Assembly: GCA_004212135.1 (NCBI GenBank)
Contig: RXIE01000127.1
Span: 1,565-65,564, forward strand
DNA length: 64,000 nt
Source of the DNA: Candidatus Methanophagales archaeon ANME-1-THS
Lineage (GTDB): Archaea > Halobacteriota > Syntropharchaeia > Alkanophagales > Methanospirareceae
Direction: 5' to 3'
Numbering within the stretch: the first letter of the stretch is position 1; the number at the start of each line of letters is the position of its first letter. Made by a program: the position numbers and the translations under genes. The notes below the pieces were generated by a model, which searched no databases, was not told where the DNA came from, and worked only from the letters and a program-made list of their open reading frames with translations. Positions 6,482 to 64,000 of this stretch are shown here, in pieces.

Positions 6482-6482
6482 C

Positions 6483-8495: not shown

Positions 8496-8742
8496 TGCAA
8501 TAAAGAATTTAAATGATCTTGCATACCTCACGAGGAGGAAGCTGGAGAATGAGAATGGTGAGCAGAGGGGCGCGGTCGTGATGTGGCGAACGAAAGGTGC
8601 CGAGGAATTTAACTACCTGCTCCAGTGCCCTTTCTGTGGCGTGGAAGAACAATCACAGGCCTTTTTCAAGAAGAGACCTTATCGAGTGCAGTGTAGCAAC
8701 TGCGGGAAGAGTATCCTGATCGAGAAGCTTGCGCCAAAATAA
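8482..8742 (+). CDS. Small zinc-ribbon protein (CPFC…CSNC)
   Basis: Likely start is MKLPDAIKNL at 8482, overlapping the ribG stop. Two CxxC pairs. Confidence 0.4.
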   Translation: MKLPDAIKNLNDLAYLTRRKLENENGEQRGAVVMWRTKGAEEFNYLLQCPFCGVEEQSQAFFKKRPYRVQCSNCGKSILIEKLAPK

Positions 8743-8892
8743 CAGTTCATGCTTGGAATAAATGCCATATTACCTTTTAGAATTCAGATTCCACGGATCT
8801 GCTAAAAATATCTTAGGGAGTTAATTTTTGACGTTGCGAGGCGCTTTCATGTTAGAGGTGTAACAAGAAAAAGACCAGTTTCGCACGTTACG

Positions 8893-9426
8893 TTGGCAGG
8901 TCCTTTTGAAACGAGAAGTATAAAAAGAGTAATTAACGATGTGGAAAATGTTGCTAAAAATTATGACCTCGTGAATTTTCAACTCAAAGGGTTTGGTTAT
9001 TTCGATAACCCCAATGGCAAGGTTATTTTCGCAGATATTGAGCCCTCAAAAGAACTTGAAGAACTGCGGTGGGAATTAGCAACGAGATTAACGAAGTATG
9101 CTGAACTCAAAGAATGGGATAAAGATAAAAAATTTTCATTTCACGCCACAATCGCTTTTAAGGACATTGATAGGAAATTCCCTGACATTTGGAGATACCT
9201 GAAAAGCAAAGAAGTCCCAAACATCAACCAATATCTCTTGAGAATAACGATTTTAGGAAAAGGTCGTAGAATAGTGTGCGAATATGACCTCATGCTTAAG
9301 AGGATATTAAATCGAAGACAGGCTTTAAGCAAGAAAATATGGATAATAACCAAATTCATATTGAGATTAAAGTTGTTCCGTAGAAGGTTGGTGGGTGCGA
9401 TTAAAAAGATATTCTGGTGGTCGTAA
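8893..9426 (+). CDS. 2H phosphoesterase (LigT-like 2'-5' RNA ligase family) with uncertain or non-canonical start
   Basis: Second HxTx motif (FHATIAF) lies inside the ORF. The first HxTx motif (SHVTLAGPF) is encoded in-frame upstream of the listed TTG start, after a TAA at 8803-8805. No ATG exists in that stretch. AT-rich context. Confidence 0.45.
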   Translation: MAGPFETRSIKRVINDVENVAKNYDLVNFQLKGFGYFDNPNGKVIFADIEPSKELEELRWELATRLTKYAELKEWDKDKKFSFHATIAFKDIDRKFPDIWRYLKSKEVPNINQYLLRITILGKGRRIVCEYDLMLKRILNRRQALSKKIWIITKFILRLKLFRRRLVGAIKKIFWWS

Positions 9427-9540
9427 TGATATACCTCATAAGCGATCTGCATTTAAAAGAGTGAAAAACGAAGAGATGAGGTAAGATTTTACAAAATAAA
9501 ATTGAAGGTTTAAAGCTCACTGACAGAATTAACAGAAATT

Positions 9541-10408
9541 TTCAGTTATATACACCTTATCATCGTTTGAAATAGCTACACCAATCCCTTCGCTCATCCA
9601 ATAAGTGGTTAAAATATTCTGTCTATGTCCTTGGCTATTCATCCATCCTTGAACAGTGTATTCAGCTATTTCCTCCTGAGTGTTCCAATCATAAGAGGGA
9701 ACTCCATCCTAGTAAGTTACTGAACTGTATAAATTGTTTTGAAAAATATTCTCAGCACCCATATAGATGTAATTTCCTACACATACTTCACAATTAAAGC
9801 CTTCTTGTTGGTATCTATAAGAAAAATCGTGACCTTCTGGATCACTATGACTAAAATAGTTCCTATTAGCCATGTCTTGACTGTGCTTTCTCGCAATGAT
9901 ATTCAATGTATCATTCCATGATAAGGCAGGCAATCCTCGTTTATCTCTTTCTTCGTTTATCAGATCGTGAATTTGTTTTTCTAGTTCGAGGATATTGATT
10001 TCTGGTTTTGATGAAGTCACAAGAGGTGAATAATCGCCTGATTCGTTCCACCAACTACCAATATCTTTACCTACACTTTGAAAAGACGATTGAATTTTGC
10101 CAGATTGGTAAGCAGAATATAAAAAATAACCAGCAAGTGCTACAACAGCTAAAATTGTCAGGGCAGTTATAGCTTTTTTAATTTTCTTTTCTCTTTCTTT
10201 TCTATATTTGTATCTCAGTTTTCTATAAACAATAGTGCCTTGACCCCCAAGATGTTCAATGTAATATCTGTAATGTTCACCTTTGAGATAGAGGTCCCAT
10301 CAGCGACCAGTTTTTTTTCGCTATCTTATATGCCTTATTATAAACCCATTGGGGTACTTCCTTTTCATCTACCTCTTCCCAACCAGCTAAATCAATTCTT
10401 CTCGGCAT
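9541..10408 (-). pseudogene. CAP/SCP/PR-1 domain protein gene, disrupted by an in-frame TAG at 9706-9708 and a probable frameshift near the T8/A8 homopolymer at 10311-10319
   Basis: Reverse-frame translation reads …NYFSHSDPEGHDF…SSVTY*DGVPSYDWNTQEEIAEYTVQGWMNSQGHRQNILTTYWMSEGIGVAISNDDKVYITENFC*. The CAP motif GWMNSxGHRxNIL lies downstream of the stop. A TM anchor and an ATG-initiated N-terminus (MPRRIDLAGW…) sit upstream in a different frame. Confidence 0.55.
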
Positions 10409-15898: not shown

Positions 15899-16282
15899 CT
15901 AATAAAACAGTATCGCCTTTAGTTCCAGAACGCGGGTAATCTCATCTAATATCTCCTGTATTTTACCCTTTACTCGCCTCCATGCCTCCTGAACAGGAAC
16001 CGCGGTATAAACATATTTAAGCCTTTTCCCCTCTTCTACCCTTTTTATTATAAATCCTTCCTGGTCCAATCGCTGGATATATTTCCGTATGGTTCGTTCT
16101 GAAAGATTCAGGAGGTTCTCAATCTGTTTTATCGTTAACGAGGAGTTTAGTAAAAGATTATAAATTTTGATCTCTATTGGCTTAAAATTAAGAAACCCTA
16201 AACTAACATTTAATAACTCAATTGGTTTCCTGCCTTCTTTCAACGCCTTTTCTATATCCGCGATATAATTTCTTTTTATCAT
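15899..16282 (-). CDS. Winged-helix HTH transcriptional regulator
   Basis: LTIKQIENLLNLSERTIRKYIQRLDQEGFIIKR HTH region, 127 aa. Confidence 0.55.
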   Translation of the reverse strand: MIKRNYIADIEKALKEGRKPIELLNVSLGFLNFKPIEIKIYNLLLNSSLTIKQIENLLNLSERTIRKYIQRLDQEGFIIKRVEEGKRLKYVYTAVPVQEAWRRVKGKIQEILDEITRVLELKAILFY

Positions 16283-16366
16283 GAGTGCATTATACTATGA
16301 ATAAATTACTATATAAAAGCTTCAGAGGTATGAATCTTTTAGCACGATGAATCAACCTTTCTAAAG

Positions 16367-48965: not shown

Positions 48966-49880
48966 ATGAGCGACTCAGCGCAGCGGTGCGCCGGTGCCTT
49001 TGGATCTTTCAGGGGCGGTTTGGCTGAACGACTGGTAGAGAAGCTCCTCTTTATCTGCGCGCTTTCCTCTATTCTCATTGTCTTTTTTATCATCGCCTTC
49101 ATCTTGAAAGAAGGCATTCCTGTCCTTGCGCTTGGTCCTGATTTCTTCTTCGGGATGACCTGGAAGCCCGGTCAGGGCCAGTTTGGCGTGGTGCCGACGG
49201 TACTGAGCACCTTCATCGTGGGCATCGGTGCACTGGGGATCGCGGCAGTGATTGGTATACCTGCTGCGATCTATTTAGCTGAATTCGCACCCGAATGGCT
49301 GCGAGCTCTTATCAAGCCGAGCGTGGAGATGTTGGTGGGTATTCCATCGATCGTGCTCGGCTTCTTCGGCTTGATGGTGCTCGTGGTCTTCATCCGAGAC
49401 AATATCGGCGGCTGGGGTGAATGTATCCTGGCAGGGTGGGTAATCCTCGCGGTCATGACCCTGCCGCACGTCATCAGTATATCCGAAGATGCGCTTCGCG
49501 CGGTACCGAGAACCTATAAAGAGGCATCACTCGGGCTCGGTGCCACACCATTACAGACAATACGAAAGATACTAGTGCCAAATGCACGATCCGGGATCCT
49601 GGCCTCTTTGATTTTGGGTATGGGCAATGCGATTGGCGAGACCATGGCGGTCCTGATGGTCATCGGAAATCCGAACATACCCTGGATTCCCAGCAGCGTG
49701 CTGGAACCGGTACGAGTGCTCACCTCCACGATTGTCATTGAGATTTCGTACGTCGTCTGGGGTTCGACGCACCAGCATGCGTTGTTTGCGCTCGGTGTGA
49801 TTCTCTTCAGCATTGTTGCGGTGCTCAATGCAATCACCACGGCACTGATCAGAAAGGGGATAAGGACGGGGTGTAGATGA
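48966..49880 (+). CDS. pstC: Phosphate ABC transporter permease PstC
   Basis: Multi-TM ABC permease with an EAA-like loop. Sits in a pst operon context. Confidence 0.85.
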   Translation: MSDSAQRCAGAFGSFRGGLAERLVEKLLFICALSSILIVFFIIAFILKEGIPVLALGPDFFFGMTWKPGQGQFGVVPTVLSTFIVGIGALGIAAVIGIPAAIYLAEFAPEWLRALIKPSVEMLVGIPSIVLGFFGLMVLVVFIRDNIGGWGECILAGWVILAVMTLPHVISISEDALRAVPRTYKEASLGLGATPLQTIRKILVPNARSGILASLILGMGNAIGETMAVLMVIGNPNIPWIPSSVLEPVRVLTSTIVIEISYVVWGSTHQHALFALGVILFSIVAVLNAITTALIRKGIRTGCR

Positions 49881-50740
49881 ACAGAGGCGAAGTAGCTGAA
49901 AAGCTGGTAAAAGCAGGCTTGCTCGGAGCGGCGCTTATATCCGTCGCGGTCCTCCTCATCGTCGTTGCGTACATCGTTCTTAAAGGTGTGGGCACGATAA
50001 ATCTCGAGTTCCTGACCCAGGCTCAATATCGATTTGGACGGGGTGGTGGTATCTTTCCGCAGATCATCGGCTCGTTAGGTTTGGTCGGGGTCTGTCTGCT
50101 CTTCGCTGTTCCGCTGGGCGTTGCGTCTGCGATCTATCTCGCGGAATATGCCCCGAATAACCTGGTCACGGAAAGCGTGCGGTTCTTTGTGGCATGCCTG
50201 GCGGGTATACCCTCAATTGTGATAGGACTGTTTGGATTGGTATTTCTCGTTTATTACCTCCATCTGGGCGTCTCCCTGCTCTCCGGCGGTTTAGCGCTCG
50301 GGTTTATGATCCTCCCGTGGACCGTTCGGGCGAGTGAAGAAGCGATCAAAGCGGTTCCCCAGTCTTACCGCGAGGCGTCGCTCGCATTAGGCGTCACCAA
50401 GCTCCAAACCATTCGGAGGATCGTGCTTAAAAGCGCTTATCCGGGCATCATCACGGGTGTACTCCTGGGCACGGGCAAGGCGATAGGAGAGACTGCAGTT
50501 GTGCTTTTAACCGCGGGTTCTGGTCTTGAGAGCTTCTTACCCCGGTCTATATTCGACCCTGTTGCGTCGCTACCCGTCTATGTGTATCTGCTTGCAACAA
50601 CGGGGAACACGTCAGAGCAGCTCGAACGTGCGTTTGGCGCATCGCTCGTGCTCATCACGCTCTTTCTGCTGATGAGCATCTTCGCGTTAGTCCTTCGGGA
50701 TCGCTATTTCAAACGTATGAGAGGAAGAGGAGGAGGCTAG
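49877..50740 (+). CDS. pstA: Phosphate ABC transporter permease PstA
   Basis: Paralogous permease. Overlaps the pstC stop. Confidence 0.85.
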
Positions 50741-50745
50741 GAGCA

Positions 50746-51498
50746 ATGAGTAAGATAGAGACTATAGGGCTGAGTGTGTATTATGGAGATGGCACGGTCT
50801 GTGGGTTAAAAGCGGTGAATATAACGATCGAAGCGAACAAAATCACGGCGTTGATCGGACCCTCGGGCTGCGGTAAGACGACATTTCTCAGAGCGTTGAA
50901 CCGGATGAACGAACTCAAGGGAGCGCAGACAAAGGGAAAGGTTCTTATCGATGGGATTGATATTTACAATGGCAAAGTGGATGTCATTCAGTTGAGGAAG
51001 AGAATAGGCATGGTCTTCCAGCAGCCTAATCCCTTTCCCATGAGTATTTACGATAACGTTGCGTATGGCCCTCGGATCCATGGCCAGCGGAACGAGAACC
51101 TGGGTACGATTGTGGAGGAGAGTTTGAAGAAAGCGGCATTGTGGGATGAGGTAAAAGACCGGTTGGACGAGAATGCGTTGGGATTCTCGGGAGGGCAGCA
51201 GCAGCGGTTGTGCATTGCGCGCGCACTTGCGGTCAATCCAGAAATCATCCTCTTTGATGAGCCCTGTTCAGCATTAGATCCGGTATCCACAGCGCGAATC
51301 GAGGAGCTGTTGACCGAATTGAAGCAGGAGTATACCATCGTGATCGTCACGCATAACATGCAGCAGGCCGCCCGTGTCTCGGATTGTACCGCGTTCTTCC
51401 TCATGGGCGAACTGATCGAATATGGAAAGACGTCGCAGATCTTTGAGCGACCAAAGGATAAGCGGACGGAGGATTATATTACCGGGAGGTTCGGCTAG
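50746..51498 (+). CDS. pstB: Phosphate ABC transporter ATP-binding protein PstB
   Basis: GPSGCGKTT Walker [10 protein letters not shown] signature, ILFDEP Walker B. Confidence 0.9.
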
Positions 51499-52155
51499 AT
51501 GAAGGTCAGAAAAGACTATCTGGAGGCTTTAGAGAAGCTCAAATCGGATGTATTACGGATGGGTGAGCTTGCCAAAGCTGCTGCAAAGAACGCCATCGAC
51601 GCGCTCGTTAATCATGACAAGGAGTTGGCCGTGCGACTTCTCGAAGAGAATAGCGTGATCGATCGGATGGAATTTGAGATCGAGAACCAGTGTATGAGAC
51701 TCCTCGCGTTACAGCAGCCGATGGCGATTGATCTCAGAACAATCGAAACGTCCTTGAAGATCATAACCGATTTCGACCGTATAAGCGACCTCGCAGGTGA
51801 TATTGCAGAGATTGTTATTCAGATCGCGGATCAACCGTACGCGAAACCGCTCATTGATATCCCGAGAATCTCAGAGATCTCGCAGGGTATGCTCGCGGAT
51901 TGCCTTGAGGCATTCGCAACGCACCGAATCGAGAAATTAGAGGATTTTTCTGCGCGCGATGATATTGTTGATGCGTTATTTGGCCAGATACGGCGGGAAC
52001 TGGTGGCTATCATGATCGAAAATCCGCGCGCTATTACCAGCGCGAGTCACCTTATCTTCATCGGACTCCATCAGGAACGAATAGCGGATCATGCCTGTAA
52101 CATCGCCGGCCGGATCATCTACATGGTAACGGGAGAGCGGAGGAAGCTGGGATGA
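51499..52155 (+). CDS. phoU: Phosphate transport system regulator PhoU
   Basis: Two PhoU repeats, 218 aa, directly after pstB. Confidence 0.85.
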   Translation: MKVRKDYLEALEKLKSDVLRMGELAKAAAKNAIDALVNHDKELAVRLLEENSVIDRMEFEIENQCMRLLALQQPMAIDLRTIETSLKIITDFDRISDLAGDIAEIVIQIADQPYAKPLIDIPRISEISQGMLADCLEAFATHRIEKLEDFSARDDIVDALFGQIRRELVAIMIENPRAITSASHLIFIGLHQERIADHACNIAGRIIYMVTGERRKLG

Positions 52156-52203: not shown

Positions 52204-52731
52204 TCAGCTTATCTTCTTCGCTGCCAGTTCAATAGCCCTCGTCACACTTGCGGTTGGTCGTATAGTTGCAACGGGTATCGTAACGATCCGCTCAACGGTT
52301 GGACTGACGATGGGCGCGCACACGAGCGCGGATGCACCATCTCGTTCCGCGTGAATCGCGGCTATTATCGCTTCCTCGATCGTGGTGACCGCATATTCTT
52401 TGATCTCAATCGTCTCGTTGTTGAAGTTTATCTCATCCTTTTCTATGCCGTCCAAAACGCCCCGTGCACCGATGACCGCAATGAATTTCTTCTGCCGCGA
52501 AGATCCTCGTTTGATCTCCCGCACCGTGGTGAGTATCCGCCTGAAGGTGCGCATATTCGGATCACGCTCGCCCGAGAGGATCTTGTAAAGCGTGCTGGCA
52601 GGTATGCCCGATTTCTCACTGAACTCGCCGATGCTCATCCCCAATTTCTGTTTGATCGCTGCGGCCAGTATCTCGGGCAGCTCGTGATCCTGCACAAAGA
52701 TCTCAGTTACGATCTCATCGGCGACGGTCAT
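52204..52731 (-). CDS. HTH (XRE-like) transcriptional regulator with a C-terminal ligand-binding-like domain; divergent from the CoM-related operon
   Basis: …LGMSIGEFSEKSGIPASTLYKILSGERDP… HTH. 175 aa. Confidence 0.5.
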   Translation of the reverse strand: MTVADEIVTEIFVQDHELPEILAAAIKQKLGMSIGEFSEKSGIPASTLYKILSGERDPNMRTFRRILTTVREIKRGSSRQKKFIAVIGARGVLDGIEKDEINFNNETIEIKEYAVTTIEEAIIAAIHAERDGASALVCAPIVSPTVERIVTIPVATIRPTASVTRAIELAAKKIS

Positions 52732-52793
52732 AGCTCATAGTATAAATTGCTATTCCATATATATAAATATCGCCGCTCGTATTATACAATTAG

Positions 52794-52830
52794 GAAATTT
52801 AGTGCGCAAAATAGAAAAATTTAAATATCG
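52794..52830. promoter_or_regulatory. Conserved promoter-proximal motif copy A (aatttagtgcgcaaaatagaaaaatttaaatatcg), downstream of a TATA-like box and upstream of the HdrD-like/DUF39/cysteate synthase/comDE operon
   Basis: About 35/37 identical to copy B at 58348-58384. Confidence 0.5.
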
Positions 52831-52860
52831 AGAATTTAGAAGAGGGATGACTTGAAGAGA

Positions 52861-54459
52861 ATGGTGGATAGTAAGATCGTTGAGGATGAGGAACTGGTGG
52901 CTATAAAATCACGGGAAATAACACCGGTTCTCAGAGATTACCCCGCACGCACGCACCAAATTGCAGAAATGCCCGATACGGAAAATGGGTTGGGGGAAGA
53001 AGACCTGAAGAGATTGAGGTTAGATTGGTTACTTACCGATCCTCGTGCCCCTGATTTGTATTCCTGCATTCAATGCGGTGCGTGCACGGGCATTTGCCCC
53101 GCGGCATCAGTGGACAAGAGATACAATCCGAGAAGATTGGTCGAGTGCCTTATCTCGGGATGGGATATAGAAGATTATCCTTTAGAAAAGTGCTTTTCGT
53201 GCTATACCTGTAAATACGCATGCAGAGAAGGAAATTGTGTGGCTGATATAATTAAGATCTTGAAGGAGAACGAATGGAAGGGGTTAAACGTAAATCGGGA
53301 AAGATGCAGGGAGGAGTTATACTGCAAATCCCTTTACGAGCGAGGTTTATGTGTCACCTTTGATGCTCTTTCTCCCGATAAGATTCCGGAATGGGGCTCT
53401 TCATGGAAGAGGATCTACTCAAATATGCAAAAATTCAGATTGGAGCTTGGTCTTGAAGTGCATTGTCGAAAGATACCTCAACAATCGCTTGATGAGATAC
53501 GAGAGATTGTGGATAGAACAGCGAATACAAAATTCAGAAAAGAAGGTATGGTCGAGGAAGTGACGAAAAGAATTCCTGATAATAAAATTTATCTGTTCCA
53601 TAGTTGTTTCGCGGACGCACACTATCCAGGTATTACCGAGAGTATAAAATACCTATTTGACAGGCTCGGCATTGACTACCTCGATGATCCCCGGCACTCG
53701 TCGTGCACCGGCTTTGGGTATTATGTGAATGAAATACCGCTTTCCACAACGCTTGCGATAAATGCAAGGAATTTCGCTCTGGCAGAAGAGACGGGCTATC
53801 TAAATATAGCACCGATTTGTCAAACAAGTTACGGGGTGCTTACGGAGTCGGCGAGGATTTTGAGGAGCGGCATAAGAAGGCGGATAAATGAAGAGGTCTT
53901 GAGCAAAGTGAACAGGAGATACGAAGGTGAGGTCAATATAGCCCATATTTCAGAAGTACTATGGGCTCACAGAGAGAGAATAAAAGAGAAAGTAAAGCAC
54001 AGCTTTAACGGCCTAAGAGTTGCCACACACAACGGGTGCCACTATGCGAAGATGTTCAGAAAATCCGCTATGCTTAATTTATTGGACGAACTCGTATCCG
54101 TTACCGGTGCGGAACCTTTGGATTATGTGGAGCTTTGTAATCGTCTGCGTATGGGTTTTGATCATACGGTAGAACCCGAAAGAAGATACCTTACCCGGAT
54201 AATTGCCCGAAGAAAGCTTCTATCCGCTAAAGAGGCGGGTGCTGATCTCGTTCTTGTTGCCTGTCCCGGGTGCCAAATAACACTCGATAGAAATCAAGAA
54301 CGTATTGAAAAGGAAAGTGATGTGGAACTCGGTCTGCCTATCATTAACCATGCCCAGTTTATCGCCTTAGCACTGGGTGCAGACCCCTACAAAGTTGTAG
54401 GAATACAAACGCATTCAAACTCTCTCGAACGCATCTTAGAAGAGTTCGACATTCTTTAA
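52861..54459 (+). CDS. HdrD-like Fe-S oxidoreductase (HdrC-like 2x[4Fe-4S] module fused to a divergent HdrB-like cysteine-rich domain)
   Basis: CIQCGACTGICP and CFSCYTCKYAC ferredoxin motifs, then Cys-rich segments (…HSCFADAHYPG…SSCTGFG…NGCHYAK…ACPGCQ). Confidence 0.55.
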   Translation: MVDSKIVEDEELVAIKSREITPVLRDYPARTHQIAEMPDTENGLGEEDLKRLRLDWLLTDPRAPDLYSCIQCGACTGICPAASVDKRYNPRRLVECLISGWDIEDYPLEKCFSCYTCKYACREGNCVADIIKILKENEWKGLNVNRERCREELYCKSLYERGLCVTFDALSPDKIPEWGSSWKRIYSNMQKFRLELGLEVHCRKIPQQSLDEIREIVDRTANTKFRKEGMVEEVTKRIPDNKIYLFHSCFADAHYPGITESIKYLFDRLGIDYLDDPRHSSCTGFGYYVNEIPLSTTLAINARNFALAEETGYLNIAPICQTSYGVLTESARILRSGIRRRINEEVLSKVNRRYEGEVNIAHISEVLWAHRERIKEKVKHSFNGLRVATHNGCHYAKMFRKSAMLNLLDELVSVTGAEPLDYVELCNRLRMGFDHTVEPERRYLTRIIARRKLLSAKEAGADLVLVACPGCQITLDRNQERIEKESDVELGLPIINHAQFIALALGADPYKVVGIQTHSNSLERILEEFDIL

Positions 54460-54471
54460 TAAACGAGAAAG

Positions 54472-55725
54472 ATGGAGAAGAGAAGGACGATCGCGGAGAT
54501 AAATGCGAAACTAGAAAACGGCGAAGGGGTGATTATGACCGCCGAGGAGCTTTGTAATCGTCTGCGGAGTGGTGAGGATATCAGATTTGAGGATGTGGAT
54601 GTCGTCACCTCGGCGACTTGCGGCGTGATGAGTGGAACGTATGCCATTCTTTCGTTCCAAGTTGCTGAACGAGAAGCGTTCGAGCGAGCAACAACGATTT
54701 TACTGAACGGTGTGCCCGGATTCGTGGGTCCGTGCCCGAACGAGCGGCTCGGGGTTGTTGATCTACTTGTGTATGGCACGTCTCACGCGAATGAGCGCTA
54801 TGGGGGCGGGCACCTCTTCAGGGATTTGGTCGCGCAGAAAGAGATAGAAGTGGCAGTTGGAACTGTTGAAGGACGGAGTATTAAAACCACAACGTCTCTT
54901 GAGGAGATCCCTGTTGCGAGATTGTGCAGTACGAGGAACGCATTTAAGAATTACTATGCATTTGTGAATGCCCATGAGAATGCGGTGAGTTCGATATTCG
55001 GAGTGGACAGGTTTAAAGGACCCTTCAAGGAACTGACGTTCTCGGGCTGTGGTGAGTTGAATCCATTAGAAAAAGACCCCTTCAGGGAGACAATTGGCAT
55101 TGGTACGAAGATCTTGATGAACGGGGCGGTGGGTTTTGTGATCGGAGAAGGCACCCGAAGTTCACCAGAAAAGCCAAATTTGATGGGTATTGCGGATATG
55201 CACGGGATGTTTCCTGAGTTTCTCGGCGGCTTTCGGACCGCTGCTGGCCCCGAGGTCTTTTATTCCTGGGCAGTCCCTATTCCAATAGTGAACGAGCACG
55301 TGCTTGAGAACGCAGGGAAGCGGGATGAAGAGATAAGGCTTGGAGTCCTTGATATCCATAATAGGCTCCCGGTCGGTGAAATAACCTATGCGGATGTCTG
55401 GCATGACTTTTCCGTACGGTTTGATCGCTCTGCGTGTCTCGAATGTGATGAGTGTCAGGTTGCCAGCTCGTGCCCTGCCGATGCGTTTGATGGAGAGGCT
55501 AAGGAGGTGCATGAGGATTTCTGTTGCAACTGTGGCACCTGTGTGCAGGTCTGCAAGGGTGGTGCATTCAGTTGTAATCTCGGTGTTGTCCATCTTTCGG
55601 GACGAGAGATCCCTGTAACACTGCGTCAATCAGACAGGAAAAAGGCAGTAAAGCTGGCAGAAATGCTGAAGAGCAAGATTCTGGATGGTGAGTTTGTACT
55701 CGCAGAGCCTGTAAGCAGGCTTTAA
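54472..55725 (+). CDS. DUF39/COG1900-family sulfur-incorporation protein fused to a C-terminal 2x[4Fe-4S] ferredoxin domain (putative coenzyme M synthase or homocysteine-type sulfurtransferase)
   Basis: VDVVTSATCGVMSG-type DUF39 core. C-terminal CLECDECQVASSCP…CCNCGTCVQVCK. Immediately upstream of cysteate synthase and comDE. Confidence 0.55.
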   Translation: MEKRRTIAEINAKLENGEGVIMTAEELCNRLRSGEDIRFEDVDVVTSATCGVMSGTYAILSFQVAEREAFERATTILLNGVPGFVGPCPNERLGVVDLLVYGTSHANERYGGGHLFRDLVAQKEIEVAVGTVEGRSIKTTTSLEEIPVARLCSTRNAFKNYYAFVNAHENAVSSIFGVDRFKGPFKELTFSGCGELNPLEKDPFRETIGIGTKILMNGAVGFVIGEGTRSSPEKPNLMGIADMHGMFPEFLGGFRTAAGPEVFYSWAVPIPIVNEHVLENAGKRDEEIRLGVLDIHNRLPVGEITYADVWHDFSVRFDRSACLECDECQVASSCPADAFDGEAKEVHEDFCCNCGTCVQVCKGGAFSCNLGVVHLSGREIPVTLRQSDRKKAVKLAEMLKSKILDGEFVLAEPVSRL

Positions 55726-55751
55726 TCCTTGAAGGTGATGGAAGAAGCACG

Positions 55752-57098
55752 ATGAACGAGGCAAAGTATCACCTGGAATGTTTGGAATGCAGGCACGTAA
55801 TCGCCGACAGCTATACCAATACCTGCCCTGAAGGTCATGATTCGTTATTAAGAACGGTTTATAAGAGCAAGAGGATAAGGAAACGTTCGGGGCAAGGGAT
55901 GTTCAACTATATCGATTGGCTCCCGGTAGAAGCAACAGTGCCCGTAAACACGAATCCGATTACCTACAAAAGCGAGGAATTGGGAAAAGAATTAGGATTG
56001 GAAAATTTGTATGTCAGTTTCAGTGGTTACTGGCCCGAGAAGGGTGTGTTTATGAAGACCTGTACCTTCAAGGAGTTAGAAGCGCTCCCTACCCTCCTGC
56101 GTGCACACGAGCGGGCAGGTGAGAAGATCCTGGTCGTGGCATCTGCAGGAAATACCTCACGCGCATTCGCAGAGTTCTCCGCCATGACCGGTATGCCGGT
56201 GGTGACCATCGTGCCACACAGGTATACCCACCGGATGTGGACCACGACGGAAGATCACGAGAGCATCTTCCTCATCGCGGTGGATGGCGATTATTCAGAT
56301 GCAAGTGCGGCGAGCAAGGAGATAGTGAATAAACCCTTACAGGGTTTTCGGGGTCAACGGGGCGGAGCCCCGTTAATGGCGGGGTTAATAGAAGAAGGAG
56401 GGGTAAGAAATGTGGCTCGAAGGGATGGAATGGGCGTTGTGGAACTTGAAGCTGCATGGTGTATGAAGGCGTTGCCTGATTATTATGTGCAAGCGGTGGG
56501 CAGTGGCACGGGTGCGATTGCGGCATGGGAAGCGTTTATCCGGCTGATTGGTGATGGACGATTCGGTGAAAGGATGCCGAAGATTGTGATTGCACAGAAC
56601 CTCCCGTTTGCTCCCATGTTCAGTGCATGGCAGGATGGTCGAGCGGAGCTCATCGCGGCTAAAGACCTGAGCAATGCCGAAGCGGCAATAAAGGCGATGT
56701 ATGCCAATATTCTTTCTACCCGAAACCCGCCTTATAGCATCAAAGGGGGCGTCTATGAGATGCTGAGGAGTTCTCAAGGGACGATATACGGAATAACGAA
56801 CGACGAGGCGAGGGAAGCTGAGAAGCTCTTCGAGAGTGAGGAGGGGATAGATTTAGATCCCGCGGCATCAGTAGCAGTCGCTTCTTTGATGCACGCGGTT
56901 GACGAAGGCTTTGTGGAAAAAAAGGATAGAATTCTGTTGAATATCACGGGCGGCGGCTATAAGCGATTGAAGGAGGAGTGTGCACTGTACCACGTAGAAG
57001 CGCGAATGGAACTGCACTCACATGCGGTGGGTCAATTACCGGTCGATGAACTTGAAAGAGAGCTAAAGGAGTTCGTTACGGGTTTATACGTAGGGTAA
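55752..57098 (+). CDS. Cysteate synthase (threonine-synthase-like, PLP-dependent; coenzyme M biosynthesis from phosphoserine)
   Basis: N-terminal Zn-ribbon (CLECRHV…CPEGH) and a threonine-synthase fold (…VVASAGNTSRAF…GSGTGAIAAW…). Contains the 14-aa insert NKPLQGFRGQRGGA. Confidence 0.65.
   Translation: MNEAKYHLECLECRHVIADSYTNTCPEGHDSLLRTVYKSKRIRKRSGQGMFNYIDWLPVEATVPVNTNPITYKSEELGKELGLENLYVSFSGYWPEKGVFMKTCTFKELEALPTLLRAHERAGEKILVVASAGNTSRAFAEFSAMTGMPVVTIVPHRYTHRMWTTTEDHESIFLIAVDGDYSDASAASKEIVNKPLQGFRGQRGGAPLMAGLIEEGGVRNVARRDGMGVVELEAAWCMKALPDYYVQAVGSGTGAIAAWEAFIRLIGDGRFGERMPKIVIAQNLPFAPMFSAWQDGRAELIAAKDLSNAEAAIKAMYANILSTRNPPYSIKGGVYEMLRSSQGTIYGITNDEAREAEKLFESEEGIDLDPAASVAVASLMHAVDEGFVEKKDRILLNITGGGYKRLKEECALYHVEARMELHSHAVGQLPVDELERELKEFVTGLYVG
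56328..56369. repeat. 42-bp in-frame repeat copy 1 (aataaacccttacagggttttcggggtcaacggggcggagcc) inside cysteate synthase
   Basis: Identical 42-mer at 57876-57917 in comDE. Encodes NKPLQGFRGQRGGA in both. Contains a GGGGC-GGA-GCCCC hairpin. Confidence 0.7.
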
Positions 57099-57116
57099 AC
57101 ATGAGCTGAGGATACC

Positions 57117-58289
57117 ATGTATCAAACCGAGCGGGACGTGTTAGAACTCATAAAGAGAAATAACATAGAGGTTGTCTCAACGCTCCCGTGCGAGAAACTA
57201 AGTGCTCTGTTGCGGCTTGTCGCGGACGAACGAGCATTTTGTCATGTGGGTTTGAACCGTGAGGAGAATGGCGTTGGTATCTCCGCAGGTGTTTCGCTCG
57301 CGGGGGGAAGACCGCTCATGATCATCCAGAGCACGGGTTTAGGGAATTCACTCACTGCTCTGATGTCGCTCACCGTTACGTATGGGCTGCCGTTACCCAT
57401 CATCGCGAGCTGGCGTGGCGTTTACAAGGAGCAGATAGAGGCGCAGGTCCCGTTTGGAAAGGCGCTGCCCGGCGTTTTAGATGCATTGGGGCTGAACTAC
57501 ACGCTCATCGAGGACTCCTCACAAATCGGGTTAGTAGACGATGCTATCCAGGACGCCTTTGCTCATGAAAGACCGCATATAGCACTCATCTCGCCGAGAA
57601 CATGGGGAAGCGATGAGGTGAGTAAAGAAAACACCGGTCCGCACCGGAAGAGATCTTTCACCGTGACGTATGAAGGAGAATATCAGGAGCCGGAGATGCG
57701 AAGATACGATGCGATACGGATAATCACCGAATATCTGGATGAAGAAGCCGTGATTGCGAACATCGGTGTCCCAAGCAAGGAACTGTATGCCGCCCAAGAC
57801 CGCGCTTTAAATTTTTACATGCTCGGGAGTCTGGGTCAAGCGTCCTCTATTGGATTGGGCGTCGCATTGAAGACAAATAAACCCTTACAGGGTTTTCGGG
57901 GTCAACGGGGCGGAGCCTTGTTGAGAGAGACGGTAGTACTCGATGGGGATGGAAGCCTGCTGATGAGCGATATCTTGCCGGTGGTAGGGGAGCAGAAGCC
58001 GAAGAATCTTTCTATCATTTGCCTGGATAATGGCACATGGGGGAGCACCGGAGATCAGCCGGTAGCTTTTGCAGGAGATATCGCGCTGATGGCGATCGGT
58101 GCAGGCATGGAGAATACGATGAAGATATACAGGGAAGAAGAGCTGCGGCACGCCTTAGAAGGGTTATACGAGAAGGCGGGTCCGAGATTTCTCCAGGTCG
58201 TGATTAAACCAGGCAATGCACCCATACGGAACATACCTTTGAGCGCATCGCAGATAAAGCGACGATTCATGGCTGCGCTGCTTCCATAA
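57117..58289 (+). CDS. comDE: Sulfopyruvate decarboxylase, fused ComD-ComE (TPP-dependent)
   Basis: ComD-like N-half, then ComE-like C-half with …GSLGQASSIGLGVAL…VVLDGDGSLLM (TPP-binding GDG). Carries the same 14-aa insert exactly at the GLALx–VVLDGDG junction. Confidence 0.8.
   Translation: MYQTERDVLELIKRNNIEVVSTLPCEKLSALLRLVADERAFCHVGLNREENGVGISAGVSLAGGRPLMIIQSTGLGNSLTALMSLTVTYGLPLPIIASWRGVYKEQIEAQVPFGKALPGVLDALGLNYTLIEDSSQIGLVDDAIQDAFAHERPHIALISPRTWGSDEVSKENTGPHRKRSFTVTYEGEYQEPEMRRYDAIRIITEYLDEEAVIANIGVPSKELYAAQDRALNFYMLGSLGQASSIGLGVALKTNKPLQGFRGQRGGALLRETVVLDGDGSLLMSDILPVVGEQKPKNLSIICLDNGTWGSTGDQPVAFAGDIALMAIGAGMENTMKIYREEELRHALEGLYEKAGPRFLQVVIKPGNAPIRNIPLSASQIKRRFMAALLP
57876..57917. 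repeat. 42-bp in-frame repeat copy 2 inside comDE
   Basis: Identical to 56328-56369, in the same codon phase. Confidence 0.7.
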
Positions 58290-58347
58290 TGATACCTAGT
58301 TGTACACTGAAACCAGGAATTCTTCGGGTATATTTATACATTTGGGT

Positions 58348-58384
58348 AATTTAGTGCACAAAAAATAGAAATATTTAAATACCG
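58348..58384. promoter_or_regulatory. Conserved promoter-proximal motif copy B (aatttagtgcacaaaaaatagaaatatttaaataccg), upstream of the sulfonate-type ABC transporter operon
   Basis: Matches copy A at 52794-52830. Preceded by a TATA-like tatatttataca. Confidence 0.5.
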
Positions 58385-58446
58385 CAAGTTAATAGAATGA
58401 CACGGATACAACGAGTGGGTGATACAAAGTATGAGGAGGAGTTGAT

Positions 58447-59475
58447 ATGGAACGAAGAAGCAGAGCCAGTTTAGTAGCTCTTGGGGGATTCATTGTGGTG
58501 GTCGTGATCTTCTTAGGCTGTATAGAAGAAGAGCCAAAGATTACCAAGATAAATATGGGATATCAACCGAGCACGCACCAACTGGCAGCGATGGTTGCGG
58601 CTGAGAAGGGCTGGGGAGAAAGACCGTTGCGCACTTACGGCATCGAAGATGTTGAACTCCGTTTATTCCCTTCAGGACCGCCTGAGATGACTGCAATGAT
58701 TGCCGGAGATCTTGACATTGCCTACGTCGGGGCAGCACCACCTATCGCTGCGATGTATGAGGGCCTGGATGCCAAGATCGTGGCGGGCGTCAATGTAGCG
58801 GGATCTGCAATCGCTGTCCGCCCCGAACTCGTCGAGGCCTATGAACGTGACGGGGTAGGTTCATTGAAGGGAAAAACCATTGCCACCTATCCACCGGGTT
58901 CTATTCAGTATACCATCCTTTCTCAATGGCTCCTGGATAATACCATTGATCCTGCGAAGGATGTAGATATAAAAGCAATGGCGCCGAGCGATGCTGTTTC
59001 CGCTCTAGGAGCGAAGTCCGTCGATGCGGTCTTTCTCCCCAGCCCCCATCCTGAAATAATCGAAGCTGAGGGCACTGGAAAAATCGTTAAATGGTCAGGC
59101 GAGATCTGGCCAAACCACGCCTGCTGTTGCCTGGTTGCGAGTGAGAAGATGATTCGGGAACATCCGGATATTGTTACACAGCTCATAAAAACACACATCA
59201 ATGCGACCACGTATATAAACGAACATCCGGACGAAGCGGCGGAGATCTTCGCCAAGTGGCAGGGAGGAGATGTCGCAACAATAAAGCAGTCCATTAAGAT
59301 ATCGGATTCCCGCTGGATTCACGATCCGCATCTGCAAATCGAGAGTTCGCTCACGTATGCGCTTGATATCTACAAGCTTAACAGAGAGCGATACGAGGCA
59401 AAAGGCATAAAACCGCTCACCGAAGATGATATCTTTGATACCAGTTTCTACGATAAGATAACGGGCTACAAATGA
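58447..59475 (+). CDS. ABC transporter substrate-binding protein, NMT1/SsuA/TauA-like (sulfonate/nitrate/taurine family)
   Basis: Signal/TM, then …IAYVGAAPPIAAMYEGLDAKIVAG… typical of SsuA-type SBPs. Confidence 0.75.
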   Translation: MERRSRASLVALGGFIVVVVIFLGCIEEEPKITKINMGYQPSTHQLAAMVAAEKGWGERPLRTYGIEDVELRLFPSGPPEMTAMIAGDLDIAYVGAAPPIAAMYEGLDAKIVAGVNVAGSAIAVRPELVEAYERDGVGSLKGKTIATYPPGSIQYTILSQWLLDNTIDPAKDVDIKAMAPSDAVSALGAKSVDAVFLPSPHPEIIEAEGTGKIVKWSGEIWPNHACCCLVASEKMIREHPDIVTQLIKTHINATTYINEHPDEAAEIFAKWQGGDVATIKQSIKISDSRWIHDPHLQIESSLTYALDIYKLNRERYEAKGIKPLTEDDIFDTSFYDKITGYK

Positions 59476-60251
59476 AGCTACCGGCTGCGGTACGAGATAA
59501 AGGAATCGTCTTAGTGCCTCTGCTCACCACCATTATTCTCTGGGAGGTCCTGGCGAGATATGTGGTCAAGAACCCCGCCTTCTTGCCAAGATTCTCAGAG
59601 GTTATTTTTGCATTTTATCTGCTTCGAGAGCGTATAATCCCTGATATACTGGTCAGTCTCCTCCATTTTGGTATTGGCCTGCTGCTAGCATTTTCCCTCG
59701 CACTTCCGCTCGCAATTGCTATGGGCTGGTTCAAGACGATATTCAGAGCTCTGGATCCGCTTATCGAGATCCTGAGACCGATACCTCCGCTTGCATGGAT
59801 ACCGCTCGCCATTGTCTGGTTTCACCTGACCCACTATGCGGCTGGCTTTATTATCTTCCTCGGTGCATTCTTTCCGATTCTGATTGACAGTTATACCGGG
59901 TTCAGGAACGTGCCGCGGGTGTTAGTCGAAACAGGCAAGGTATTGGGCTGCATTGGCGATAAAAAGCTGATACGATACGTTGCGTTTCCCTTTGCGCTTC
60001 CCTCGATTGCGACGGGCACTCGTGTGGGCATGGGAGTTGGGTGGATGTGTGTGGTCGCGGCGGAGATGTTCGGGGTGAGTAGAAATGGGCTGGGTTACCG
60101 GCTCTTCAACGAGTTTTACTACTGGAAGCAGATGGATTATGTCATTGCCTACATGCTTATTTTAGGATTGATCTCTCTGCTTCTGGACCGCATGTTCAGG
60201 CATTATATAGAGGAGAACCTATTTAGATGGAGGAAGGGGATAGTCAAATAG
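59472..60251 (+). CDS. ABC transporter permease (SsuC/TauC-like)
   Basis: 6-TM permease. Overlaps the SBP stop. Confidence 0.8.
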   Translation: MKLPAAVRDKGIVLVPLLTTIILWEVLARYVVKNPAFLPRFSEVIFAFYLLRERIIPDILVSLLHFGIGLLLAFSLALPLAIAMGWFKTIFRALDPLIEILRPIPPLAWIPLAIVWFHLTHYAAGFIIFLGAFFPILIDSYTGFRNVPRVLVETGKVLGCIGDKKLIRYVAFPFALPSIATGTRVGMGVGWMCVVAAEMFGVSRNGLGYRLFNEFYYWKQMDYVIAYMLILGLISLLLDRMFRHYIEENLFRWRKGIVK

Positions 60252-60252
60252 C

Positions 60253-61011
60253 ATGAACCACAAGCTCACGCTTCGCAATGTCTCGAAGACGTATAATTCG
60301 GAGGAAGGCGAGATAAAGGCAGTGGAGCATATCAATCTCGAAGTCAAGCCGACCGAATTTTTATGCATCGTCGGTCCCTCGGGCTGTGGCAAAACGACCT
60401 TGCTCAGAATGGTAGCGGGGTTAGACTATCCAACCAGTGGCGAGATTATCTTAGATGGCGCGCACGTGAGCGGTCCTTCTCCGGACAGAGGGATGGTCTT
60501 CCAGGAATTCTCGTTATTCCCGTGGAGAACCGTCTTGAAGAATGTGGAATTTGGACTGGAGATCCGCGGGGTGCAGGAGAGACGAAGAATCGCAGAGCAG
60601 TACCTGGAGCTTGTCGGTCTCCTGGACTTTAAAAATTGTTACCCGCAGGAACTTTCAGGCGGCATGAAGCAGCGAGTAGCGATCGCACGAGCGCTTGCCA
60701 CCAACCCTTCTGTGTTATTAATGGATGAACCATTTGGCTCGGTGGATGCGCAGACGAGGAATGTGCTGCAAGAAGAGCTGCTGAGAATCTGGGAGAGAAC
60801 CGAGAAGACCATTATGTTCGTGACCCATAGCGTTGATGAAGCGGTATACCTCGCGGATCGAGTTGCGGTGATGTCCGCACGACCCGGTCGAATCATCCAG
60901 TGCATGAAGATTGACATACCACGACCCCGAAAGCGAACGAGCGTAGAGACAAATGTGATTCGAGAGAAGCTCCTTACCCTCCTGGTTTCACAGTACCCAC
61001 GAATAGGCTGA
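60253..61011 (+). CDS. ABC transporter ATP-binding protein (SsuB/TauB-like)
   Basis: [25 protein letters not shown] motifs. Confidence 0.85.
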   Translation: MNHKLTLRNVSKTYNSEEGEIKAVEHINLEVKPTEFLCIVGPSGCGKTTLLRMVAGLDYPTSGEIILDGAHVSGPSPDRGMVFQEFSLFPWRTVLKNVEFGLEIRGVQERRRIAEQYLELVGLLDFKNCYPQELSGGMKQRVAIARALATNPSVLLMDEPFGSVDAQTRNVLQEELLRIWERTEKTIMFVTHSVDEAVYLADRVAVMSARPGRIIQCMKIDIPRPRKRTSVETNVIREKLLTLLVSQYPRIG

Positions 61012-61630: not shown

Positions 61631-62284
61631 TCACTCCAGTGGTATAGCGGTCTTCTCCTTCTCAATCTCTCGTGCTTTCTTCTTTATCCGCACACTGAGT
61701 ACCCCGTTTTTATAGGTTGCTTTTGCCGTCTCGGGCTTTACCAGCGTCTTGAACGCGACTTCCTTAAAATATCGTCGCCCATTTTCCGTCCTTATCTCTA
61801 ACGTGTCATCAGCAGCATGCAACTTTATATCCTTCTTCTCGACACCAGGCAGTTCAGCGACAACTTCGTACGAATCACCATGATCAATCACATCGACGAG
61901 CGGTTCGCGCTCACCGTTCGGAAAGGGCTCGATTCGTCTATGCGACGCTTTTATATTCCCAAATTCCTTTATCTCCGGCTCTTTACCCGGCTCTTTGGTG
62001 TAGGAGAACCCGTAAATAAACGGGCCATATCGTTTAACCTTACCTTCCGGCGTCTTCTCCTCGGTCATAAAACCCCTGAGTTCCTCCGGCATTCCCTCTT
62101 CTAACTTCCTCGCCATCTCCTCAAACGGGTCTCCAACCCATCCTCCTCTGTCTTCCTGGTCCTTCTTCGCCATCCGCGAGAAATTCTCCCGGGATACCGC
62201 CGGCTGGTTGCTCAAATCCTCGAAGATCCGCTCCATGTACCACTCGAGCAGATCAAAGATCGAGGGGCGCTTTCTCTTCTCCAT
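61631..62284 (-). CDS. Hsp20/alpha-crystallin small heat-shock protein with an N-terminal extension
   Basis: C-terminal …DDTLEIRTENGRRYFKEVAFKTLVKPETAKATYKNGVLSVRIKK alpha-crystallin domain. Confidence 0.75.
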   Translation of the reverse strand: MEKRKRPSIFDLLEWYMERIFEDLSNQPAVSRENFSRMAKKDQEDRGGWVGDPFEEMARKLEEGMPEELRGFMTEEKTPEGKVKRYGPFIYGFSYTKEPGKEPEIKEFGNIKASHRRIEPFPNGEREPLVDVIDHGDSYEVVAELPGVEKKDIKLHAADDTLEIRTENGRRYFKEVAFKTLVKPETAKATYKNGVLSVRIKKKAREIEKEKTAIPLE

Positions 62285-62324: not shown

Positions 62325-63131
62325 TTAATCACAGCTCGTGCTCACGACTTTGACCGGTGCTTCACCCTTTAGCCCGGTGATCAGTTTCATCAACTCGTCC
62401 AGCTTCTCGGTGCGCCCTTCAACGCAGAGAACGACCGAGCCCTCACCACCATCCACGCCGCCTGCCCCTATGGGGAACGCATCATCAGCTCCCAAGATCT
62501 TTAATGCCTCGACTTCCGTGATTATCGTGCCATGCACGGGCATCAGTCCCACGGGCATCCCGACCGACTGGTAGAATGCTTCGATCCCCACGCGTTTCGC
62601 GGCTTCGGTGATCGAATAGGGGATCGTCTTTTCAATCCCAACGGGTATGATGAAGTGCACGCCCCGTGCCATCACGGTCCCGAGAGCAGACCCGATCGTG
62701 CCACCGGACCGATGGGCCATGTATATGCCGGCTGTTCCGGTTGCGTCCAGCGCATTTGCGCCCTTTATGAAGACATCGCCAGCAGCTAACTTCTCTATTG
62801 CTTGATCAATGCCCTCGTCGCTCAACGTGCCGTTCTTCAGTATTACTTCTTTCTCACGCTCCTCCTTGGGGACCACGCAGGTACCACGGTCAGTGAGGAC
62901 ACCTGCGGCATATCGCTGCTTATCTATTTTCCGCTGCGAGCCGGGCAGGAGCTTCAAAATCTCCTCGCTGATATACCCATTGGTAGTCCCGAGCGTTATG
63001 ATGATGGTCCCTTGCTTCAATGCTCGCTGTACTGCTTTCAACCGGGTTACCCCCTTTGCAATGAGCCGCTTCGATTCAGAAGGCGTCAGTGCGATCAATA
63101 TCTTCCTCTTTTCGATTGCCATACTCCTCAC
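62325..63131 (-). CDS. Conserved hypothetical protein (no family recognised); overlaps the hom 3' end
   Basis: 268 aa, Gly-rich nucleotide-binding-like stretches. No confident match from sequence alone. Confidence 0.3.
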
Positions 63132-64000
63132 TGCACCTTTTGGCTGTAAATGCCTATAAGATCAGAGAGCATTGCACTCGCGGCTTCTATCGGACCCGCA
63201 CCTTTGCCGATGACTGTGATATCCCCTGCCAGATCGGTTTTTATGGTTGCCACGTTCAAAATGCCCCCGACATTGAGGGGGTCGTCTTTCGGGACCAGCC
63301 GCGGCGCTACTTTCAGGTTGCCCTCACGGTCCACCTCGCCGATTAACTTGATCACGTAGCCTGCTTCGTCCGCGAGCGTTAGGGCATCAGGTGTGATCTC
63401 CGTGATGCCGGTTACCTCGACATCCTTGCAGGTTGCATTCCTGCCAAAGATGGAGTTCGCCAGGATCACGAGTTTCACCGCGGTGTCCACCCCTTCAACA
63501 TCCTGTGAAGGATTAGCCTCAGCGATTCCTATCTCCTGCGCCTCCTTTAGCACGTGCTCGTAGGGCAGCCCCTCTTCTGCCATTCTCGTGAGTATGTAGT
63601 TGCACGTGCCATTCAAAATACCCTTGATTGAGAGTATCTCATTCCCCGCGAGATCACCCTTCACCAATGAGAATATTGGCATAGCACCACCAACCGTGGC
63701 TTCGAATCGCAGTTCCTTCTCCTTCTTCGCCGCGAGCTCCATCAACCGCTTATACTCGACTGCGAGAGGGCCTTTATTCGAGGTCACCACATGCCGGCCT
63801 GACTCTAATGCGGTAATTATATGTGTTAATCCCGGCTCTCCTGTCTCGACATTCGTGGGTGTCGCCTCCACCATAACCTCGTGCTCCACATCTCGTATAA
63901 CCTCTACGCTCGTCATATCTGCCATCGTGCCCATGCTTTTATGCCCGGTCTTGAGTGCCTTTATAGCCTCCTCGGAGACACCATTCTCGTCCACAATGAC
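63128..64000 (-). CDS. hom: Homoserine dehydrogenase (C-terminal portion; N-terminus beyond the window end)
   Basis: …[43 protein letters not shown]…[11 protein letters not shown]… catalytic and ACT-like regions. Confidence 0.8.

Follow-up and report, generated by a model that had tools for sequence, protein, structure and literature searches.

A 64,000-nt stretch of Candidatus Methanophagales archaeon ANME-1-THS (contig RXIE01000127.1; hereafter the window) carries a coenzyme M (CoM) gene cluster in which a biosynthetic operon and an importer operon are each preceded by a copy of one promoter module. A helix-turn-helix (HTH) regulator gene diverges from the first operon. The module recurs at the same two operon positions in related genomes, and its principal box accompanies the regulator family across archaeal classes. 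We consider it probable that this one-component regulator and its duplicated, DNA-level promoter/operator module jointly control CoM uptake and synthesis. The genes concerned are as follows (aa, amino acids):

52204..52731 (-), HTH_3 (XRE-type) regulator, 175 aa; Pfam HTH_3
52852/52861..54459 (+), HdrD-like Fe-S protein, 535 aa, first gene of operon 1; Pfam Fer4 and two CCG domains
54472..55725 (+), MMP16/ComF; TIGR03287
55752..57098 (+), cysteate synthase; TIGR03844
57117..58289 (+), fused sulfopyruvate decarboxylase ComDE; TIGR03845/TIGR03846 and genomic context
58447-59475 (+), SsuA; TIGR01728 SsuA_fam
59472-60251 (+), SsuC-like permease; BPD_transp_1
60253-61011 (+), SsuB-like ATPase; ABC_tran

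Pfam and NCBIfam profile scores bear out every gene call of the original prediction, an earlier reading of this DNA from its letters alone. MMP16 scores 528.9 bits against TIGR03287 (cut-off 363.95), combines an HcyBio (DUF39) domain with a Fer4_10 ferredoxin insert, and adjoins cysteate synthase (TIGR03844, 559.8 bits; cut-off 324.9) and ComDE. The DUF39 paralogue had been put forward as the CoM thiolation enzyme, and genetic work has since established MMP16 as the main coenzyme M synthase, named ComF (Chadwick et al. 2025, PLoS Genet, PMC12068725). In ComDE the alpha profile exceeds its cut-off (TIGR03845, 193.5 bits against 147.95), the beta profile stays below its own (TIGR03846, 196.7 against 221.5), as does phosphonopyruvate decarboxylase (186.3 against 312.5), and genomic context favours the ComDE identity. 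The importer appears to be a sulfonate-type (aliphatic) ATP-binding cassette (ABC) system and is the presumed CoM transporter; the homologous Ssu system of Methanosarcina acetivorans is termed a CoM-specific ABC transporter (PMC12068725). It had been labelled 'sulfonate/taurine-type', and only the first half of that label stands: SsuA passes TIGR01728 (186.9 bits; cut-off 163.5) and reaches 45.5 bits against the 304.25 of the taurine equivalog. The regulator matches a protein of Methanophagales archaeon ANME-1-THS at 100% identity, and the cysteate synthase shares 79% identity with its counterpart in another Methanophagales genome.

We use 'HdrD-like' as a label for domain architecture only. 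The protein fuses an HdrC-type 2x[4Fe-4S] ferredoxin domain (Fer4, residues 69-127) to two CCG domains (Pfam CCG x2, 71.3 bits), and it falls below the NCBIfam equivalog cut-offs for HdrB (235.4 bits against 450) and HdrC (86.3 against 270). Its gene is flanked by the regulator and MMP16, with no HdrE-like gene found in the cluster, and some orthologous operons lack it. Its start is probably ATG 52861; TTG 52852 and GTG 52897 (preceded 5' by GAGGATGAGG) are the alternatives that make it ambiguous. Among the related loci examined (numbered with L), the start region of L001 has an in-frame deletion of 27 nt, and in L004/L046 an upstream ATG homologous to the HdrD-like start region is out of frame and closes after 11 codons.

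Anatomy of the promoter module

Near-identical motif copies precede the two operons, A at 52794-52830 and B at 58348-58384, as the original prediction had reported. The 16-mer AATTTAGTGCRCAAAA occurs twice without mismatch in 64 kb, its sole other match carrying three mismatches, and within the window the octamer TTTAAATA is confined to the two modules. Similarity between A and B extends 5' past the motif first noted and through a TTATACA box. The gapped pattern TTATACAW-N6-AAWT-N8-13-AATAG-N4-9-TTAAATA (46-48 bp span) has two exact matches in the window, against 0.00 expected from 100 shuffles.

The 36-bp motif is the core of a ~100-bp module (52733-52827; 58295-58381). Its parts, drawn from an alignment of 36 modules, are a 14-bp box (ATTATACAATTAGG; ATTTATACATTTGGG in copy B), an inverted copy of this box ~40-50 bp upstream, a 20-bp central block and a B recognition element (BRE)/TATA element, AGAAAAATTTAAATA. 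Read toward the operon, the order is the regulator ATG on the opposite strand, the inverted box (U), a TATA-like block (T0), the 14-bp box (B1), the central block, BRE/TATA and the start codon. A position weight matrix (PWM) of the box was scored on 35 modules. In the window the elements lie as follows:

52733..52746 (-), copy A U box, the inverted 14-bp box, TTTATACTATGAGC on the minus strand; B1 PWM
52757..52769 (-), copy A T0, TATA-like element ATATATATAAATA; read from sequence
52781..52794 (+), copy A B1 box ATTATACAATTAGG, putative operator; 36-module alignment
52795..52814 (+), copy A central block AAATTTAGTGCGCAAAATAG, the motif proper of the original prediction; alignment
52815..52827 (+), copy A BRE/TATA AAAAATTTAAATA; predicted transcription start ~52850-52852
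58295..58306 (-), copy B degenerate inverted box TGTACAACTAGG on the minus strand; PWM score 6.7, 2 mismatches
58332..58350 (+), copy B B1 box in the form ATTTATACATTTGGGTAAT; 19-mer match elsewhere
58348..58368 (+), copy B central block AATTTAGTGCACAAAAAATAG; motif match
58369..58381 (+), copy B BRE/TATA AAATATTTAAATA; predicted transcription start ~58404-58406

Information content across the alignment peaks at B1, and copy A is the sole exact TATACWATWAGR match in the window. An inverted box scoring >=3.4 lies within -62 to -35 in 25/35 modules, against a chance expectation of ~0.6. In most modules this minus-strand copy occupies -46 to -49, and a few have it at -37 to -43. In copy A the U box falls between the regulator's putative TATA and its ATG, with TTATACTAT at 52737-52745, a position suited to autoregulation. 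The T0 block, TTATTTATAT/AAAT, is conserved across the alignment and lies about 23-25 nt from the regulator ATG; it may be the promoter of a leaderless or short-leader regulator mRNA. In the central block AATTTA and AAAATAG are nearly invariant and the middle varies (TAGTGCGC, TAATGCAC, TAATAGAC). The block could belong to an extended operator or form a second site for protein binding, immediately 5' of BRE.

Further boxes in the window were treated as background. Matches to TATACWATWAGR with up to two mismatches are unenriched (17 found, 19 expected), and those at 16290, beside a TrmB-family gene, and at 40367 have no supporting context and were taken as chance. The TrmB-family regulator gene itself (15899-16310, 127 aa, -) carries TTATACTAT at a distance of 8 nt from the start codon, with a TATATAAAAG box close by, a U-box-like layout that is probably chance or an ordinary promoter.

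The motif ends in what reads as a near-consensus archaeal core promoter. Across the 36 aligned modules TTTAAATA is invariant and AGAAAAATTTAAATA invariant or nearly so, and in most related copies an ATG, GTG or TTG sits 22-24 nt past TTTAAATA; window copy A has TTG at +24 (52852) and ATG at +33 (52861). This spacing suggests that TTTAAATA, not the TATACA box before the motif, is most likely the working TATA box, and that transcription probably starts downstream of the motif core. The original prediction had placed the motif just after TATA-like boxes, an order that the spacing argues against. The same rule gives the predicted copy B start, with a ~40-nt leader and a strong Shine-Dalgarno sequence (GAGGAGGAG) at 58433-58441. 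A scan for sigma-70 promoters and intrinsic terminators gave nothing above shuffles and is uninformative for an archaeon.

The codon after the TATA box has different fates at the two positions. In copies before the biosynthetic operon (type A) it opens the first operon gene (MYKKM...). In copies before ssuA (type B) it opens a short open reading frame (ORF), for example MYKKMFGSIEWKKLGGD and a stop, which ends in the spacer between the ssuA Shine-Dalgarno sequence and start and looks like a leaderless upstream ORF coupled to ssuA. The short ORF, MYKKM(F/L)(G/D)(S/C)I(E/K)WKKLGGD and a stop, is found in L086, L024, L071, L096, L049, L091 and L090 and carries Met and Cys codons. Copy B of the window (58382-58446) has no clean version of it.

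Conservation of the module and its link to a regulator family

In the DNA scanned, the module is confined to two operon positions. We built an nhmmer profile from 14 module copies and applied it to the window, 20 related loci and metagenome loci. Only copies A and B match in the window, and matches in the 20 related loci fall at the A or B positions, with none in the flanks. One metagenome scan returned 101 loci, of which 28 contigs hold 30 true copies by profile; a few have no readable context, and all the others are either type A, in the gap that separates the regulator from HdrD-like/MMP16, or type B, between ComDE and SsuA. No further copy of the motif appeared outside the two positions in the DNA scanned. 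A generic promoter element and a motif unconserved in relatives were the two outcomes the original prediction had named against itself; profile specificity and conservation at orthologous operons show neither.

Conservation of the module exceeds that of the coding sequence beside it. The 20 related loci share the order regulator, diverging from HdrD-like or PAPS (3'-phosphoadenosine-5'-phosphosulfate)-reductase-like gene, MMP16, cysteate synthase, ComDE and SsuABC, and several carry the module at both positions. Mean identity between genomes is 88.6% for the 50-bp core, 79.5% for the adjacent regulator gene and 63.9% for its third codon positions, which argues for purifying selection on the core. 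In L090 the operon reads HdrD-like, MMP16, ComA, ComB, ComDE (4068-9624), the phosphosulfolactate route, and module copies flank it on both sides. Keeping both copies with ComA/ComB in place of cysteate synthase indicates that the module tracks coenzyme M, not one enzyme. On the ANME-1-related contig L050 the regulator diverges directly from ssuA, with the module in between.

Some related loci vary in their gene content. In L006 (7912-8697; 11310-12185) and L013 a PAPS-reductase-like gene replaces the HdrD-like gene at the head of the CoM operon, and a gene of the TauE/SafE-type sulfite/sulfonate exporter family lies between cysteate synthase and comDE. These genes would fit a supply of sulfite to cysteate synthase (compare PMC6286981). 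In L075 the module copies (1352-1413 and 9162-9207) stand 7.8 kb apart around genes for a PGF-CTERM/PQQ-repeat surface protein and a Bmp-type binding protein, probably after a rearrangement or an insertion between comDE and ssuA.

Type-B modules bear the mark of their origin. They contain an antisense remnant of the regulator's first codons (..AGCGAT.CTCAT) fused to or overlapping the 3' end of comDE (L001 12490-12520, L002 11154-11200, L086 and others; window 58265-58306). In other type-B copies a clear U box lies alongside the remnant, and in L001 the comDE stop codon falls inside the U box. The remnant points to duplication of the whole intergenic unit.

The regulator belongs to a small family. 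Its N-terminal part matches HTH_3 (PF01381, residues 26-67) at 34.5 bits, above the cut-off of 23, and an AlphaFold2 model (pLDDT 82.8) places a five-helix HTH before a C-terminal Rossmann-like alpha/beta domain. The best Foldseek matches in the PDB are LacI, CcpA, PurR and PrpR, weak over the whole chain (TM-score ~0.3); a PDB sequence search with the regulator returned no match. Pfam PrpR_N (PF06506) matches weakly, under its cut-off (E 0.009), and NCBI names some family members 'PrpR N-terminal domain-containing'. Across 41 sequences there is no variation in the recognition-helix region or in a VCAPIVS motif that contains Cys138. Among 1.84 billion proteins the family has 224 representatives, of which an estimated ~60 are full-length.

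Across lineages the regulator keeps company with the importer. It is adjacent to the module in 15 type-A loci, and its divergent position is kept in all type-A loci except the L090/L110/L098 group. Distant homologues (about 38-62% identity overall, 40-62% for those of the first three taxa named here) diverge from an SsuABC-type operon in Ca. Syntrophoarchaeum caldarius, from SsuABC in three Methanoregula loci, from SsuA/SsuC in Methanofastidiosum and from SsuA-type operons in two further lineages of unassigned taxon; on a Hadesarchaea contig the transporter lies 1.4 kb from the homologue. Two distant members have other neighbours: one in L131 (330-1730) diverges from a PAPS-reductase-like gene, and one in L129 (381-2109) follows thioredoxin and thioredoxin-reductase-like genes, contexts that suggest a broader family tie to sulfur and thiol metabolism.

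The box accompanies the regulator gene across lineages. In the three Methanoregula loci the most conserved intergenic block, GATACAATAAGGTTAATT, lies next to the regulator start and is the same as the ANME-1 box; variants of B1 stand beside regulator homologues in L130 and L125. The copy B 19-mer ATTTATACWTTTGGGTAAT, with one W position, has exact matches between the regulator and ssuA genes of Ca. Syntrophoarchaeum caldarius (L134) and Methanofastidiosum (L135), the only two of 136 loci to hold it outside the window. In both it is oriented toward ssuA and followed by a TATA box, with the start 23 nt on. By its repetition and inversion and by its co-conservation with the regulator gene, the box reads as a transcription-factor operator. 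The original prediction that the divergent HTH regulator governs a small CoM/sulfonate regulon holds up: the motif stands at both orthologous sites in many ANME-1 relatives and nowhere else in the DNA searched, and its box follows the regulator family across archaeal classes.

Competing explanations

Several observations weigh against control by this regulator through these boxes. The window's own inverted boxes are weak, that of A scoring 1.7 with 2 mismatches and that of B having 2 mismatches. A third box copy stands at +65 in 11/35 modules and is not present in either window copy; we rejected it as a third operator since it also overlaps conserved leaderless start codons (ATG TAT AAA AAA ATG), so that coding constraint may account for part of its likeness to the box. 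TTATAC and similar AT-rich boxes could be TATA-like sites for TATA-binding protein (TBP) instead of regulator sites. L090 has an AAA_17 kinase-like gene as its divergent neighbour and both modules without an adjacent regulator, and L007, L010 and L011 retain the regulator with a decayed A module. In Methanoregula, Syntrophoarchaeum, Methanofastidiosum and other distant loci the ANME-1 module profile gives E > 0.2 with nhmmer, which confines the cross-class claim to the short box, the Methanoregula footprint and one exact 19-mer. The assignment of the C-terminal domain is weak, given the TM-score and the sub-threshold PrpR_N match. Lastly, Aenigmarchaeota and Hadesarchaea, for which use of CoM is not established, have members of the family too, and the effector may thus be sulfonates in general.

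This last point leads to the rival that survives best, in which regulator and module are real and the signal is something other than CoM: aliphatic sulfonates, sulfite or sulfide status, or thiol redox. Besides the taxonomic spread of the family, the thioredoxin and PAPS-reductase-like neighbours of its distant members speak for such a signal, as do the invariant Cys138 in the sensor domain and the many sulfonates that SsuA-family proteins bind. Against this, the ANME-1 regulon consists of exactly the CoM biosynthesis genes and the transporter, under either CoM pathway, and most lineages bearing the family depend on CoM. The same gene set also shows a CoM-specific response in M. acetivorans (PMC12068725). 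We regard a non-CoM signal as a serious but somewhat unlikely alternative.

A second rival sees in the module a strong core promoter, with upstream elements, common to both operons and either constitutive or read by a factor encoded elsewhere, while the neighbouring regulator controls itself or some other target. The near-consensus BRE/TATA at the module's 3' end would be expected under it, as would the regulator-free modules of L090, the loss of most of module A beside a kept regulator in L007 and L010, and AT-rich boxes that serve as sites for TBP or transcription factor B (TFB). However, the box co-occurs with the regulator gene across classes despite diverged intergenic DNA, and in the 15 type-A loci noted above the two are adjacent. 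Inverted repeats and conservation above the coding level also exceed what a core promoter needs. We think this explanation improbable.

A riboswitch-like RNA in a shared 5' untranslated region (UTR), sensing CoM or a precursor, was suggested by the original prediction and now has very little to commend it. The two copies share their orientation before both operons, the TATACA box, taken as the TATA box, would put the motif in the transcript, and a short palindrome (CATTT-N10-AAATG) lies downstream in some related copies. Every search for RNA was nevertheless null: an Rfam 15 scan of the whole window at gathering thresholds returned only the tRNA at 4280-4363, RNAalifold found 0 consensus pairs on 22 aligned leaders, and six single-sequence folds were no better than shuffles (z +1.62 to -0.47). 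The A/U-rich core ends, moreover, in a canonical BRE/TATA with the start codon 22-24 nt downstream, and the block beyond it is N-terminal coding sequence or the short upstream ORF, not structure. We therefore rejected this reading.

It is just as hard to credit copy B as a functionless relic of segmental duplication or a mobile repeat, for all that the regulator-codon remnant shows its duplication origin and L075 has two copies split by unrelated genes: the two copies persist together in lineages that share just 55-75% protein identity, the metagenome scan places copies at no other kind of site, terminal repeats and transposase are absent, and the ssuA-proximal copy is the sole one in Syntrophoarchaeum and Methanofastidiosum.

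A proposed coenzyme M regulon and its origin

Joint control of CoM uptake and synthesis by the regulator and its duplicated module can be graded by its parts. That the module is a DNA-level promoter/operator specific to CoM genes is very likely, and that the adjacent regulator binds the box is likely. The bound form would most likely be a dimer or a higher oligomer. The regulator would control its own gene, the CoM biosynthesis operon (HdrD-like, ComF, cysteate synthase, ComDE) and the SsuABC importer, and uptake and synthesis would respond together to the status of CoM or a closely related sulfonate. BRE/TATA would start transcription ~23 nt downstream, giving leaderless or very short-leader mRNAs. 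Position hints at the sign of regulation: B1 and the central block, just upstream of BRE, suggest activation of the operons, and the inverted box, lying across the start of the regulator itself, points to autorepression.

The simplest history begins with a regulator diverging from ssuABC. Syntrophoarchaeum ssuA begins MYKR, 23 nt past its TATA box. In ANME-1 the promoter module would have been duplicated together with the first codons of the regulator and of the downstream gene, placing the biosynthetic operon under the same control. More tentatively, we can extend this to the whole family, as a possibility that we would not yet call probable. The XRE HTH and Rossmann-like family with its invariant cysteine may be the CoM sensor of methane- and alkane-metabolising archaea, binding an ATACAAT(T/A)AGG-type operator to set SsuABC uptake. 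The pairing would be ancient in Syntropharchaeia (ANME-1, Syntrophoarchaeum), Methanomicrobiales and Methanofastidiosa. The ANME-1 regulon would then have grown by tandem duplication of a promoter-operator-leaderless-start unit, which captured the CoM biosynthesis operon and left the short upstream ORF before ssuA.

Physiology in M. acetivorans provides a precedent for joint control of uptake and synthesis. On CoM starvation ssuA rises ~3.4-fold, cs ~11-fold and comDE ~8-fold (PMC12068725). With 1 uM CoM, ssuA/ssuC, cs and comDE return to normal, and hdrABC also responds (PMC12068725). The study addresses physiology and names neither a regulator nor a cis element (PMC12068725). The genes that move together there, those of the ssu transporter, cs and comDE, are ones that stand behind the module in the window; the response was measured there, whereas a candidate regulator and cis element are put forward here from sequence.

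Known transcription factors resemble the proposed system in part. In E. coli, Cbl and CysB are LysR-type activators that act on sigma-70 promoters and control ssuEADCB and tauABCD. There too a transcription factor ties an SsuABC-type importer to sulfonate metabolism by sulfur status; here, by contrast, we find an XRE-type HTH with a small Rossmann-like domain, an archaeal BRE/TATA, and cofactor synthesis rather than sulfur scavenging. LacI, PurR, CcpA and the N-terminal domain of PrpR share the predicted arrangement of an N-terminal HTH followed by an alpha/beta sensor-like domain, although the domain here has ~100 residues, roughly one lobe, and the HTH is of Cro/C1 type, not LacI type.

Archaeal regulators supply comparable layouts. 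TrmB with its TGM box, NrpR and MDR1 are encoded divergently from their target operons, and their operators lie by BRE/TATA or over the transcription start. They share with the window the divergent layout and short repeated or inverted boxes, with one box covering the regulator's start and another next to the target promoter. They differ in protein family and box, and here a second operon has been recruited through duplication of an entire promoter-operator unit. One-component regulators with operators are a known kind of system; this family, its operator and its CoM link are new to the literature we searched, which yielded none of the three and neither a named CoM regulator nor a pairing of ssuA with a regulator in methanogens.

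Other genes of the window lie outside the proposed regulon. Directly upstream, at 49877-52155, is a phosphate-transport-like cluster of a BPD_transp_1 permease, an ABC ATPase and PhoU (TIGR02135, 190 bits); L016 also has the PhoU neighbour. The tRNA gene at 4280-4363 (-) scores 57.9 bits with Rfam, an archaeal Hsp20 gene (NF041800, 159.7 bits) lies at 61631-62284 (-), and the ORF of a homoserine dehydrogenase gene (63128-63994, -) begins at the window's end.

All methanogens, methanotrophic ANME (anaerobic methanotrophic archaea) and alkane-oxidising archaea rely on CoM as their essential carrier of methyl or alkyl groups. To our knowledge, no regulator or cis element has been described for a CoM-specific transcriptional response. 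The locus supplies a defined operator sequence, a candidate regulator family and clear predictions, making CoM sensing and balance directly testable, and the family has homologues in Methanoregula, a genus with cultured species. In uncultured ANME-1 it ties accessory genes (HdrD-like, PAPS-reductase-like and TauE-like) to CoM synthesis. It also offers a clean case of how an archaeal regulon can grow, through duplication of a complete promoter-operator unit.

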